64,000 nucleotides of DNA from Cenococcum geophilum. Its lineage: Eukaryota. Under the pieces are notes generated by a model, which searched no databases, was not told where the DNA came from, and worked only from the letters and a program-made list of their open reading frames with translations. The position numbers and the translations under genes are program-made. Below are positions 4,300 through 7,200 of this stretch, one piece after another; the stretch's first letter is position 1; each line of letters begins with the position of its first letter. The DNA lies in the NCBI GenBank assembly GCA_050273025.1, contig CP158635.1, positions 21,452,001 through 21,516,000 on the forward strand. Reading direction: 5' to 3'.

Positions 4300-7200
4300 T
4301 ATAACGGAACCTTATAGCAAGAACTACGGTAGGTCCTATTATTGGGCTAGGTGTATAGGAAATGCAAGTATAAAAGTCAATAACGTAATAATAACTGGTG
4401 GAGTGGTTGCCTAATAGATTAACTCCAATTATATTCTAAGAATCACTATAAGGAAGAAACTATCTAGGTAGGGATTAAGGGTCCTTAAATACACAACTGT
4501 ACTCCTATAAAATCCTTTTTATATATAATATACGTCTTATATATAAGGTACATAAGTTCCTTTTATTCCTCTTATTTAATATATAGCATATTATATAACC
4601 TTAGTTACCATTTCTCGTTATATAGTTCTATCGGCTCTATTCTAGACCGTGCCTAAATTAACTAACTAGCTTCTTCTATCTCTTCTCTAAGTAGTTATAA
4701 TATTATACTTAAGCGTTCGTAATACCATTTCCCTTCTTTTTATCTTTATCCTTAAAGATTCCTAATATCTTTAAGTTATTTACTAGAGGTATAATATCCA
4801 TCTAATTAATTTGGTTAATATTATTACTTATTATACCTAAAGCAATTTCTTCTTTACACGCCTAATGTCGTGCTCGCACTATTACTGCAATATTATCTCT
4901 TAGTGAGATTATACCGTCTCCGTATTCTTATTATTTAAAAAAGGGGTTAGTTTATATTGCGTTAGCGAACCCATTTTCGCAATAACCGTTCTCTTACTTA
5001 GAGTGCACTAAAGCGAATATTTATTTATCCTGCGATATTCGCTCTACCTCTAATACTAAATATACGCGACTTATTACTCTTAATAGTCGTCTAGTTCCCT
5101 AATTAATTTATCTTAGAGTTTTATATTTAATCTACTACTACGCGGCTAGATAGTAAACTGTCTTAAGCCCTTACTAAATTAGAATGTTCTTATAATACAG
5201 AATAGAAGGCCCTAAATACCCAGATTGCGGCATTTACTTATTTACTTTATCTTAAGAAGGTTTATAAGAAGGTTTATTTTAAGAAGTAGAAACTTATAAA
5301 ATAAGGTTTATAGGAACTTAGCGATAAAAGAACGGATTCTCTTCTAATAGAGAAGGAAATAGATCTGAGTAATTCGGCAACTGCTCTTCTTAGGTCCCCC
5401 TTAGGTAACTTATTCTTTAGTAATTCTTCTTTATTAATACTACCTAACCTAATTTCTTCTAATACTCCTGTACCTTTTTTATAGCGTTTTTTTAAATTTT
5501 CTAGTAGCTTCTAGGTAGTCTTAGTGTAGCCTATCCACTTAACCTTATACTATATTTTATTGTTAATATCCTTATAATTAACGATCTTTAAAACTTGCTA
5601 TTTATCTTCCTCTTATCCTCTATATGTGTCTACTTTATAAACTAGTGGCTTAACATTCCCGTATACTGGCTCTAGCATTATAATATACTATATAGGGTAG
5701 ATCTTAATTTTGGCTAGTAGGTTTAGCTTAAATATAACTAGTAAAATCCTTTACGTAATTTTAAAAGGTCCTAGTCTAACGTAGTTTAACTTCTTACTTA
5801 GTTATTAACTCTTAAAATTTTTATATAGTAGCTATACTTTATCTCCCTCCTTAAGATCTGGTCCCTTAGATCTCTTAGCATTATAGTACCTTTTTATTCC
5901 TTCTTATACTTTCTTTACTAATTCTATAAGGTCTATATAAAGATTTATTAATATCTTTATTCTTTCTTTAGCTCTGCTACTTATTTTCTTTACTTACCGT
6001 AGTAATAGTAATATTCTTAGCTTATATCCATAATTTGCCTTAAATAGTAATATACCTATTCCTTTTTAGGGTGTTATATTATATATAAACTATATAACTA
6101 GTAATAGCGATACCTAATTATTCTATGTATAATTAATATAATGCCTTAGATACTACTCTAGTGTCTAATTTAGTTTCTTTATTTAACCGTCTATCTACAG
6201 ATAATATGCGGTAGAAGTTGCTGCTTAAACCCCTTACTCTACTAAGAATACTTCCTAGAATACTGCTATAAATCTTAAATCTCTGTCTAATATAATCTTG
6301 CTTAGTGCTCTATATCTTATAAATACTTCTTTAATATAGATTTTAGCGACATCTTCCGCTAAGATTTCTTCTGTATATGCTATAAAGTATCCCTACTTTA
6401 TAAGCTTATCTACTATTACTAAGATCGCGTTATAATCTTATCCAGTAATAGGATCTTTTAACTTTAGTAACTTAATAATAAAGTCCTATAATATAACCTC
6501 CTATAGTCTTTCTAGTATTTTAATAGGTTATAGCCCTCTATATAGCCTATGCCTTATTAGTTTATTCCTTTAGTAATCTAAATACTCTCTTATAACCCTT
6601 TTAGCTATTCTCTAGATTCCGTTAATAATATATTCCTCTTAGAGTCTTAACACTAAGCCTATAGCTCCATTATATCTTTAAGTTAATCCCTTATAGAATT
6701 CTTCTATAAATTGCTCTGCTATACTTAGGATATACTTTACTTCTTGGTTTTTATATATATCTATCTATAAATCTTCTAGTTATACTTTTAGAATTCTTTA
6801 TACCTAAAAGCTTTCTAGTATCTTATAGACCTTCTCTAGTTCCTTATCTTCTTAGGTTGCTATAATTTTTAGATAATTATACCTAATTAATCTGTCTATA
6901 TCTTTTCGCAGTAAAGCCCCTAATGGCTTTTTATTGTTTTATAGTTTAGCCTTTTAACTTAGAGCATCTGCTTATATATTATCTATACCCTTAGTATACT
7001 AAATCTTAAAATAGTATTTTATAAGTATCTCTGCCTATCTAACCTATCTTTAGTTAAGTTCCTTTATCGTTAGAAATCCTATTAGGTTTTTATAATCCGT
7101 CTTAACTATAAATAGTTTCTTTATACCTTATAAGAATGCTCTCTATTCCTTTAATACTATAACTATACCTAATAACTTCTTGTTGTAAATGTTATAGTTT

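Follow-up and report, generated by a model that had tools for sequence, protein, structure and literature searches.

What kind of gene would a retrotransposon carry on the strand opposite its own pol, and how much of that gene can still be read once RIP has taken its toll? The question is raised by a 64,000-nucleotide stretch of the Cenococcum geophilum genome (contig CP158635.1, positions 21,452,001 to 21,516,000; hereafter the window), where three copies of one LTR retrotransposon family, here called B, C and E, share a battered reading frame with six regularly spaced cysteine positions. At a probability of roughly 70%, we read this frame as the RIP-inactivated remnant of a third gene belonging to one lineage of fungal Ty3/gypsy chromoviruses, whose product was probably a zinc-cluster-like, dimeric regulator.

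The carrier elements

Element B (4300-12247, pol on the minus strand) is a complete, RIP-degraded Ty3/gypsy LTR retrotransposon, delimited by self-BLAST, Pfam matches and a 5-bp TSD, GCTAA, at 4295-4299 and 12248-12252. Its LTRs, at 4300-4724 (the 3' LTR in the sense of the element) and 11822-12247, are 92% identical by self-BLAST, and read-through of its minus strand matches the Pfam families RVT_1 (63.1 bits), RT_RNaseH (51.9 bits) and SH3_Tf2-1 (20.4 bits, below the cut-off of that family). RIP is reflected in its indices of 1.64 for TpA/ApT and 0.35 for (CpA+TpG)/(ApC+GpT). Element C (12744-20687, pol on the plus strand; LTRs at 12744-13175 and 20280-20687; TSD AATTT) is a second full-length member of the family, in the opposite orientation, and is 85% identical to B over 7989 nt by self-BLAST. 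Element E holds a nested LTR element (26835-34817; TSD CTAAC), and a remnant of its pol persists on the minus strand from after 34853 to about 35305. The elements show the TG...CA-type LTR ends, 5-bp TSD, polypurine tract and RT-RNase H-integrase order of Ty3/gypsy retrotransposons. A chromodomain at the end of integrase was found in relatives, with Pfam Chromo (PF00385) scoring 31.7 bits against a cut-off of 25.1 in one related locus (L004) and 19.5 bits in another (L054); copy C in the window is too degraded for a Chromo score and gave just SH3_Tf2-1, at 22.6 bits.

All three window copies of the family carry the six-cysteine frame, each time in the interval separating pol from the 3' LTR, and the frame is antisense because the pol of these elements occupies the opposite strand. 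An HMM built from relatives gave no match to the cysteine motif in the remaining gypsy families of the window (26835-34817; 40673-51064; about 56900-59200). In B, the 3' LTR is separated from the antisense start codon by a spacer (4725-4832) which, read on the minus strand, contains the polypurine tract adjoining the LTR, and which varies less than any other part of the region (purine/pyrimidine, or RY, diversity of 0.019 over 4723-4832 in 87 aligned copies). The spacer might serve the antisense gene as a 5' UTR or promoter.

Structure and fate of the antisense gene

A six-frame search of the window (64 kb) for the pattern [C/Y]x2[C/Y]x6[C/Y]x13[C/Y]x2[C/Y]x8[C/Y] returned exactly three matches, at 4923-5033 in B (plus strand), 19971-20081 in C (minus strand) and 26296-26406 in E (plus strand), compared with a mean of 0.01 per window in 100 first-order Markov simulations, one of which contained a match. 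The six-cysteine spacing that a sequence-only reading had proposed for these copies is thereby upheld. A change from TGY to TAY is a RIP change, and we regard the tyrosines within the motif as former cysteines because relatives have cysteine at those positions. In B, read from 4911 with stops given as X, the frame runs IPSPYSYYLKKGLVYIALANPFSQXPFSYLECTKANIYLSCD, with cysteine (TGC) surviving at two of the six positions and tyrosine at the other four. Inspection of 26296-26406 bore out the claim that E retains the same 37-codon spacing while the residues between differ (AEKKL, IIIAA, TRAN), all six positions now being tyrosine; the retention in C, on the minus strand, of ATG CCG (20093-20088) and TGC ACT AAA GCG AAT was likewise as described.

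In B the gene comprises two exons on the plus strand. Exon 1 (4833-5061), supported by RY diversity and by a profile of database relatives scoring 75.1 bits at 4911-5063, contains the start codon, an N-terminal extension, a second methionine codon position at 4911 and the six-cysteine motif, and ends within a split tryptophan codon. It is followed by an intron of 55 nt (5062-5116), of the form GT...AG in the family, with the G of the donor changed to A in B; of 87 copies, 19 have G and 67 have A at position 5062, 86 have T at 5063, 86 have A at 5115 and 82 have G at 5116. Joining the exons of B gives ...SDAEW|SRVQS..., as in the predicted proteins P0155 and P0186 from the databases. Exon 2 (5117-5484) encodes the predicted long helix, or coiled coil, and an acidic tail, and matches the predicted proteins P0169, P0172 and P0186. 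Its conserved stop is a TAG at 5482-5484, so the gene end near 5400 of the sequence-only reading has to be moved 84 nt downstream. The last 38 or so nucleotides of exon 2 overlap the end of the chromodomain coding region of pol on the opposite strand, tail to tail, and the Chromo match in locus L004 stops at the corresponding place. A minus-strand ORF in B (5274..5510, 78 aa), considered as a tail of pol that would overlap exon 2 by about 210 nt, was rejected as a fusion of frames caused by a 1-nt insertion at 5487 peculiar to B.

The gene of C (19499-20171, minus strand; 64.7 bits with the HMM of relatives) has exon 1 at 20171-19943, intron at 19942-19888 and exon 2 at 19887-19499, and has been killed by RIP, with an ATA start, an AA acceptor and many in-frame stops. 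That of E, which belongs to a diverged subfamily, lies on the plus strand, its main part at 26212-26834 (60.8 bits with the same HMM) comprising exon 1 (26212-26422), intron (26423-26477) and the beginning of exon 2 (26478-26834). There the nested element interrupts exon 2 at 26835, and the remainder resumes on its far side at 34818-34853, with the TAG stop at 34851-34853. At the start codon, which is 4833 in B, all three window copies read ATA; 24 of 87 family copies have the ancestral ATG. With the start lost in all three, nine internal stops in B and the gene of E split, the antisense gene is dead in every copy in the window.

Four RNA or putative RNA runs, one of them raw RNA-seq, compared with 4300-6200 at 90% likeness gave zero depth over 4748-5259 and no splice joint, a result that says nothing about intact copies because those in the window are RIPed and probably silent. 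The reads that did align covered only parts of the LTR, together with patchy sequence at about 5260-6200 from contigs of two runs only.

Coding capacity and selection

To what extent is this frame more than an open stretch of degraded DNA? RIP acts through transitions, and RY diversity counts only purine/pyrimidine differences, i.e. transversions, so that RIP is excluded from the measure. Alongside the window copies we used 80 related loci from four metagenome data sets, with 72-82% DNA identity to B. Among 87 aligned copies, RY diversity at codon positions 1, 2 and 3 was 0.063, 0.018 and 0.136 in exon 1 (Mann-Whitney p 4e-9) and 0.068, 0.065 and 0.155 in exon 2 outside the pol overlap (5119-5443; p 2.5e-6), p-values that overstate independence because the aligned copies are related. 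The excess at third positions was confined to the antisense frame (p > 0.7 in both other frames), the intron showed no periodicity, and the frame of pol gave 0.031, 0.087 and 0.043 over the region of the antisense gene (p 0.76).

Comparison of B with its diverged relative E tells the same story. In exon 1, 20 of 34 transversions between them fall at third codon positions, and five of the six indels within the coding sequence are multiples of three (3, 3, 12, 21 and 3 nt), the sixth measuring 1 nt; a seventh gap (19 nt) merely reflects where E was cut at the nested insertion. Across the family, the length of exon 1 modulo 3 is constant in 86 of 87 copies and that of exon 2 in 83 of 87, coding sequences range from 597 to 630 nt in six copies compared, and the ATG, GT...AG and TAG are conserved (87 copies). 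No stop-free DNA copy was found among those aligned: 82 of the 87 could be read in frame, and every one of these has at least three in-frame stops, and the intact-looking versions are the gene predictions P0155 and P0186 only. The earlier proposal of protein-level selection before RIP thus gains support, since substitutions and indels not attributable to RIP are non-random with respect to the frame. The variation among copies shows that the antisense gene evolved under protein-level purifying selection before RIP; the six-cysteine ORF is a real ancestral gene.

The gene is also widespread. Searches of public protein collections returned 213 representatives at E<=1e-3, and a separate search 394 proteins at E<=1e-3, most of these relatives being RIP-damaged. 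The same pattern, with a middle loop of exactly 13 residues, occurs in 229 of 279 stored database proteins, 11 of the 229 having cysteine at all six positions, including P0155 and P0186. In 78 of the 80 related metagenome loci, the tail of pol, integrase and RT lie convergent to the gene within 1200 nt 3' of its start; in the remaining two loci the sequence stops less than 150 nt downstream. The database searches brought up no host relative of more than 239 aa.

Predicted architecture of the protein

The ancestral antisense product was about 198 residues long. AlphaFold2 (AF2) predicts a long helix at residues 77-151 of P0155 and 98-205 of P0186, with pLDDT above 90, giving helix lengths of 75 residues in the truncated P0155 and about 110 in P0186, followed by a disordered tail predicted to be acidic and rich in Ser and Phe. 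Modelled as a homodimer with ESMFold2, the protein scored 0.52 against 0.00 for the best control, with an antiparallel interface formed by residues 76-150; the runs share at least 77% of contacts and the pLDDT of the partner is at least 78. The mark for a dimer was passed by 21 of 30 proteins solved as one-chain pairs and by none of 23 solved as single chains, and a pass by a coiled coil may reflect a general likeness to solved coiled coils. These models support pairing of the long helix as an antiparallel homodimer, place a putative dimerisation element C-terminal to the cysteine cluster, and agree with the coiled coil that had been suggested for exon 2.

Predictions for the cysteine region are far less certain. 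Short helices begin at each C-x2-C in the AF2 models of P0155 and P0186, at a pLDDT of just 47-69, and the second of these models (P0186), although built with 84 sequences, was no more confident there. With such scores, zinc binding and the fold of this part are suggested by the cysteine pattern alone. Foldseek returned no match in the PDB for the P0155 model, a wide VIA-align search recovered generic coiled coils only (residues 70-152, Z of 7.5 or less), and a profile of relatives found nothing at E<=10 among PDB sequences.

Identity of the cysteine motif

Described as a 'near-canonical Zn2Cys6 spacing' by the sequence-only reading, the motif deserves the phrase as a description, but the evidence stops short of placing it in the Gal4-type family. 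Its spacing is C-x2-C-x6-C-x13-C-x2-C-x8-C (2-6-13-2-8), and the consensus in the pertinent part of PMC4025492 is C-x2-C-x6-C-x5-12-C-x2-C-x6-8-C, so the middle loop exceeds the Gal4-type range of 5-12 by one residue, while the other spacings fit. The Pfam family Zn_clus (PF00172) has a gathering threshold of 21 bits, which none of the members tested reaches, P0155 scoring 13.6 bits (E 0.075) and P0122 9.4 bits, and the partial match in P0155 pairs the second half of the model with the first half of the motif. Zn_clus is nevertheless the only Pfam family to recur among members (4 of 35 at E<=10, best E 0.073); P0186, with all six cysteines, gave no Zn_clus match at E<=0.1, and neither did the raw translations of the window give one. 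In the ESM Atlas the closest cluster, from Ascomycota and 204 aa long (score 0.90, with 200 of 256 features in common), carries the automatic name 'Zn(2)-C6 fungal-type domain-containing protein', and a search with the cysteine part alone returned only unnamed Ascomycota clusters at 0.84 or less.

Gal4-type Zn2Cys6 factors and the antisense protein are alike in having six cysteines in two C-x2-C-x(6-8)-C halves, a basic first half, then a dimerising helix (predicted in our case) and an acidic tail. They differ in that the antisense protein is only about 200 aa long, lacks the middle homology region, is encoded by a retrotransposon, has a loop of 13 residues and remains below the Zn_clus cut-off. 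The predicted antiparallel dimer is a further departure from the coiled coil of Gal4.

Weighing the alternatives

In AT-rich, RIPed DNA, could the frame have arisen by chance, or as a mirror image of pol or of 3' sequences acting in cis? The strand opposite a coding sequence is often open, and the artefact at 5274..5510 in B is a case in point, but this origin has already been refuted and we give it practically no credence: the Pfam-supported domains of pol reach neither exon 1 nor most of exon 2, the chromodomain ending near 5447, the periodicity belongs to the antisense frame and is absent from that of pol, and the motif was matched three times against 0.01 expected. Alternatively, the antisense RNA might matter in itself, as double-stranded RNA or through small-RNA control of the element, with the open frame incidental. 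Regulatory antisense transcription of retroelements is discussed in parts of a 2020 review (PMC7264820), and the LTR-adjoining spacer is extremely conserved; yet a non-coding role, already disfavoured, is hard to square with a periodicity that favours third codon positions, with indels that keep the frame, with the conservation of start, splice and stop signals, and with cysteines kept over hundreds of relatives, and we hold it to be highly improbable.

If the frame was a gene, the nature of its six cysteines is where explanations diverge. They may form a genuine if somewhat stretched Zn2Cys6 cluster of Gal4 type, acquired from a transcription factor of the host, in which case the protein would be a mini Gal4-like activator binding CGG-type sites. 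The two pseudo-symmetric C-x2-C-x(6/8)-C halves of the 2-6-13-2-8 spacing suggest as much, as do the lysines between the second and third cysteines, the proline that precedes the fourth, the helix and acidic tail after the motif, the weak but recurring Zn_clus matches and the automatic name of the nearest Atlas cluster. Against this reading stand the sub-threshold Pfam score with its halves misaligned, a loop outside the published 5-12 (PMC4025492, in the part that gives the consensus), the unnamed clusters retrieved by the cysteine part, the lack of any relative above 239 aa among those found that could represent a host source, and the predicted antiparallel coiled coil. We therefore entertain it only tentatively, at somewhat less than even odds. 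Another zinc or disulfide module, making contacts with protein or RNA (for instance to assemble particles, to bring the pre-integration complex into the nucleus or, jointly with the chromodomain, to target chromatin) instead of binding specific DNA sequences, would sit well with the failure of every family test and with the physical entanglement of the gene end with the chromodomain coding region; nuclear or regulatory roles are also proposed for plant antisense ORFs in the relevant part of the review, where DNA-binding evidence is not part of the case (PMC7264820). Pseudo-symmetric spacing and basic residues nonetheless suit a zinc cluster better than familiar knuckle or ribbon motifs, no sign of a partner emerged, and we rate such a module as unlikely.

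Counterparts and proposed function

An antisense gene in this position is already known in kind. The closest known counterpart, by position and orientation, is brtn of Boty from Botrytis, the source of which is said to be a 2011 paper (Virology 417:248). In the passages on Boty in the literature, brtn is an antisense gene between pol and the 3' LTR, and a Monilinia transcript resembles BRTN as well as a truncated Pol (PMC8365987, PMC4227169, PMC7264820, PMC5987419). Such a double resemblance would be expected of genes that adjoin each other. Boty and the window elements are both Ty3/gypsy retrotransposons of Pezizomycotina with a chromodomain and with an extra gene that separates pol from the 3' LTR and runs opposite to gag-pol, a comparison of position and orientation only; unlike brtn, the window copies are RIP-killed, and the published passages describing brtn make no mention of cysteines, zinc or a coiled coil. 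A look-up of protein clusters for 10 matches to the antisense protein returned 'hypothetical protein' or no name, and neither there nor in the other protein searches did a match bear the name BRTN.

Plants supply further examples. The sections of PMC7264820 on antisense ORFs between pol and 3' LTR cover Grande gene23, RIRE2, Retand and PvRetro13, report their presence in most family copies, propose that they have their own promoter close to the 3' LTR and work in the nucleus or as regulators, liken them to retroviral antisense accessory genes, and describe clear similarity to known proteins for none. Position and orientation are the same as in the window gene, while the hosts are different and a sequence relation is not expected. 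By its location, its presence within the family and its conserved coding, the window gene falls into the class of additional antisense ORFs termed 'aORF-3R' there. Our search of the literature found no report joining antisense ORFs of fungal LTR retrotransposons with Zn2Cys6.

How might such a gene have served its element? Transcription in the antisense direction would begin in or beside the 3' LTR, and the intron would survive retrotransposition because it cannot be spliced from sense-strand genomic RNA. The cysteine motif may hold zinc in a binuclear cluster like that of Gal4, or in something close to it, making the product a small, dimeric, putative nucleic-acid-binding regulator that could act on the LTRs or life cycle of its own element, much as is supposed for antisense accessory genes of other retroelements. 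A more specific version, which we consider rather doubtful, is that an entire chromovirus lineage of Pezizomycotina encodes a mini Gal4-like factor, expressed from a spliced antisense transcript starting at the 3' LTR, that binds the LTRs of its own element and switches sense transcription or directs integration. The LTR ends of the element carry inverted repeats containing CGG/CCG.

HBZ of HTLV-1 is an example of a retroviral antisense gene, and the mini Gal4-like factor, if real, would be a fungal counterpart of such regulators. A readable architecture of six-cysteine motif, predicted dimerising helix and acidic tail, together with hundreds of relatives, turns the antisense ORF into a concrete hypothesis of a DNA-binding regulator. 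Should brtn prove to belong to the same family, a gene whose function is called unknown in the pertinent part of the 2020 review (PMC7264820) would gain a testable one. There are consequences for annotation, too: Ascomycota proteins of about 200 aa automatically named 'Zn(2)-C6 fungal-type domain-containing' or 'hypothetical' may be the genes of retrotransposons and not transcription factors of their hosts.

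Degraded chromoviruses and the position of the antisense gene

The window is mostly AT-rich (GC about 0.27-0.38), with a few GC-rich islands, and self-BLAST reveals LTR retrotransposons, nested and inverted, among them three RIP-degraded copies (B, C and E) of one family. Element B (4300-12247) carries gag-pol on the minus strand between LTRs that are 92% identical, flanked by a 5-bp duplication, GCTAA; element C (12744-20687; duplication AATTT) is inverted relative to B and 85% identical to it; element E, diverged and partial, begins near 25895, is split at 26835 and resumes at 34818, the LTR element inserted there having the duplication CTAAC. 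TpA/ApT reaches 1.63-1.77 in the three copies versus 0.67-1.28 in the GC-rich islands, and (CpA+TpG)/(ApC+GpT) falls to 0.18-0.35 versus 1.10-1.36, values that are extreme by the usual thresholds for these indices. With stops read as X, the minus strand of B matches the Pfam families RVT_1 (63.1 bits) and RT_RNaseH (51.9 bits), followed by a Tf2-type integrase SH3 domain (20.4 bits, under its cut-off), and in a less damaged related locus a Chromo domain (31.7 bits) lies directly after SH3. From this domain order, B is a Ty3/gypsy chromovirus with gag-pol on the minus strand. The gene studied here, a two-exon frame with a six-cysteine motif, lies on the strand opposite to pol, in the interval from the pol terminus to the 3' LTR (4300-4724 in B), and likewise in C and E. 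This position, absent from the earlier sequence-only reading, is the key to its identity.

Relatives and gene structure

A word-indexed search with the read-through of B returned three similar, less damaged ORFs among 24 candidates. A first profile, built from these and the window copies, was searched against 1.84 billion proteins; 213 representatives reached E<=1e-3, 111 of which also reached E<=1e-10, with lengths of 49-233 aa among the 150 matches listed. With a second profile, from 35 members in better condition, 394 of 8000 scored candidate proteins reached E<=1e-3. Relatives come from JGI, ENA and one NCBI record, and the sole name given to any is 'hypothetical protein'. The best kept are P0155 (152 aa, truncated by the end of its contig) and P0186 (239 aa), both of which read ...SDAEW|SRV... 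across the exon junction and thereby fix an intron of 55 nt.

Exon bounds in B follow from column counts at the start, splice and stop sites in an alignment of 87 copies, namely B, C and 85 stretches from 80 related metagenome loci, partial copies having been dropped. The third base of the start codon (4835 in B) is G in 24 of the 87 and A, by RIP, in 63, while that of a second ATG (4913) is G in 65; the donor GT (5062-5063) has its G in 19 copies and its T in 86, the acceptor AG (5115-5116) its A in 86 and its G in 82, and the stop TAG (5482-5484) its three bases in 87, 86 and 85. In B the gene thus comprises exon 1 at 4833-5061 and exon 2 at 5117-5484 on the plus strand, or 597 nt (198 codons and a stop); in C it occupies 20171-19943 and 19887-19499 on the minus strand, and in E 26212-26422 and 26478-26834 plus 34818-34853 on the plus strand. 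The start previously proposed for B, 4833, holds; the proposed end, 5400, falls 84 nt short of the stop. With nine internal stops in B, and its ATG and donor G lost, the gene is dead in the window.

Selection on the protein and linkage to pol

The sequence-only reading had proposed an accessory gene under protein-level selection before RIP, an interpretation supported by third-position periodicity and a kept frame. Between B and E, the 34 transversions of exon 1 fall 9/5/20 on codon positions 1/2/3, with a weaker third-position excess in exon 2, and the coding indels measure 3, 3, 12, 21 and 3 nt, plus a single indel of 1 nt. Another gap between the two, of 19 nt, is an artefact of the cutting of E at the nested insertion. 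Across the 87 copies, diversity after purine/pyrimidine recoding, which is blind to RIP transitions, is 0.063/0.018/0.136 by codon position in exon 1 (Mann-Whitney, third versus rest, p 4e-9) and 0.068/0.065/0.155 in exon 2 over 5119-5443 (p 2.5e-6), versus 0.068/0.052/0.053 in the intron (p 0.57) and p > 0.7 in the two other frames; the copies are related to one another, so these p-values are not strict probabilities, but the periodicity itself is plain. Exon length modulo 3 is kept in 86 of 87 copies for exon 1 and 83 of 87 for exon 2, and total coding length ranges from 597 to 630 nt among six copies listed. In one locus (L050:5700-6500), a deletion fuses the region of the first cysteine codon to that of the intron, and the whole cysteine domain is gone.

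The 80 loci, which come from four data sets, are the best 80 of 329 confirmed when JGI metagenome contigs were scanned with P0155; DNA identity to B is 72-82% in the 12 listed. In tblastn searches with pieces of B's pol, 78 of the 80 have a pol tail, then integrase and reverse transcriptase, on the strand opposite to the gene, beginning a median of 435 nt past the antisense-gene start; in the other two, just 83 and 146 nt of sequence are available downstream. The antisense gene is a conserved, spliced, protein-coding part of the element.

As its stop (5482-5484) lies within the stretch that codes for the last chromodomain helix on the other strand, the two genes run tail to tail into each other, with an overlap of at least about 38 nt. 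In the pol frame 3' of the chromodomain (5252-5470, minus strand), each majority stop up to 5279 is replaced in some copies, a minority, by CAG, CAA, CGG or TGG, and is therefore RIP-made. The first stop for which such evidence is slight, at 5252-5254, reads TAA in 81 of 85 copies, so that pol may ancestrally have continued further into exon 2, by up to about 230 nt. Over 5274-5443, variable sites are third positions of the antisense gene, not of pol. A 78-aa minus-strand ORF in B (5274..5510) is misleading, because an extra T at 5487, present in B alone and absent from the other 86 of 87 copies, joins the frame of pol with the antisense gene's mirror frame.

A zinc-cluster-like motif and a predicted dimer

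The pattern [C/Y]x2[C/Y]x6[C/Y]x13[C/Y]x2[C/Y]x8[C/Y] has three matches when the window is read in its six frames: 4923-5033 (+) in B, 19971-20081 (-) in C and 26296-26406 (+) in E. By chance, 0.01 are expected per simulated window. Cysteine survives at two of the six positions in B, one in C and none in E, the remainder being tyrosine because RIP (TG to TA) turns cysteine codons into tyrosine codons; the earlier reading of these copies was correct letter for letter. A profile HMM of the cysteine domain matches B (75.1 bits), C (64.7) and E (60.8) only, with no match in the other gypsy families of the window. Among 279 database proteins collected, 229 fit the pattern with exactly 13 middle residues, and 11 have all six cysteines.

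The spacing had been called near-canonical for Zn2Cys6. It does recur in B, C and E, but the Gal4-type consensus is C-x2-C-x6-C-x5-12-C-x2-C-x6-8-C, so that the middle loop here (2-6-13-2-8) is one residue too long, and the Pfam Zn_clus model stays below cut-off, scoring 13.6 bits on P0155 (E 0.075, cut-off 21) over part of the motif only. Zn_clus is the sole recurring Pfam family among the 35 profile members, found in four, every one below threshold, and P0186 has no match to it at E<=0.1. A PDB sequence search with the family gave no match, and structure searches with the P0155 fold matched the long helix only, not the cysteine region. In the ESM Atlas, the nearest cluster (score 0.90; 204 aa, 77 members, Ascomycota) is automatically named 'Zn(2)-C6 fungal-type domain-containing protein', a lead which suggests that some public annotation already gives relatives this label. 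The protein resembles a zinc cluster, may function as one, and is a putative, not an established, Zn2Cys6 member.

AlphaFold2 models, from 35 sequences for P0155 and 84 for P0186, contain a single long helix (residues 77-151 in P0155, 98-205 in P0186) with pLDDT above 90, short helices starting at each C-x2-C with pLDDT of just 47-69, and a disordered stretch of 34 residues at the end. This tail, rich in Ser, Phe and Leu, has five acidic residues and one basic. At the best a/d heptad positions, 57% of residues are hydrophobic, versus 39% overall. For two P0155 copies with four zinc ions, ESMFold2 gave a median of 0.52 over three runs, where the highest of three controls scored 0.00, with contact agreement between runs of at least 77%, partner pLDDT of at least 78 and antiparallel contacts over residues 76-150. 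Of proteins solved as same-chain pairs, 21 of 30 reach the mark applied, and of those solved as single chains, 0 of 23; coiled coils may pass through likeness to solved ones. The modelling supports homodimer pairing of P0155 and predicts a dimeric helix with a disordered acidic tail.

Known systems and possible function

According to three papers (PMC8365987, PMC4227169, PMC7264820), which cite Zhao et al. 2011, Boty-like gypsy elements in Botrytis and Sclerotinia have an additional antisense gene, brtn, placed after pol and before the 3' LTR. It shares the position and orientation of the gene described here and is a possible homologue. A Monilinia transcript similar to both Pol and BRTN is mentioned in a further paper (PMC5987419), and the review (PMC7264820) says that a clear likeness to known proteins has been reported for none of these antisense ORFs. 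A literature search, with most subscription journals outside its reach, found no report that connects Zn2Cys6 with an antisense gene of a retrotransposon. Antisense accessory genes of fungal chromoviruses are known as a kind; added here is another, with a readable but unproven protein architecture.

Antisense transcription might start from a conserved 108-nt spacer and the 3' LTR, and the six cysteines would bind zinc in a protein that could bind DNA (or RNA) and act on the element's own LTRs. Introns on the antisense strand escape loss by splicing, as genomic RNA is the opposite strand, which would account for the persistence of this one. Four RNA runs show zero read depth across the gene, which speaks neither for nor against its expression.

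Neighbouring features

The sequence-only observation was confirmed and its interpretation supported; several other features of the window were also noted. LTR ends at 4300-4311, 12236-12247, 12744-12755 and 20676-20687 are short inverted repeats with CGG/CCG, of the type TGTTACGG...CCGTTACA, partly RIPed; the CGG/CCG are possible candidate sites for a zinc-cluster protein. The element nested within E's antisense gene (26835-34817, duplication CTAAC) belongs to a second gypsy family distantly related to B (RT 35-40% identical), with a related copy at 40673-51064, and in the approximately 2.6 kb from the end of its integrase match (31818) to its 3' LTR (34479) there is no Cys-motif gene. A ladder of self-BLAST offsets marks a tandem repeat at 22660-23089 (period 54 nt, about eight units, 92-97% identical). 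At the left, an open frame at 3-1313 (-) runs past the window's end; it scores 153.7 bits with Pfam IF-2B (initiation factor 2B subunit family) and appears to be an ordinary host gene of the GC-rich flank beside the RIPed block. Between RIPed repeats, the GC-rich island at 37-40 kb holds a 141-aa frame at 38395-38820 (-) with a SnoaL_4 domain (37.9 bits), whose hydrophobic start looks, by eye, like a signal peptide and whose next exon may be the frame at 38144-38428.
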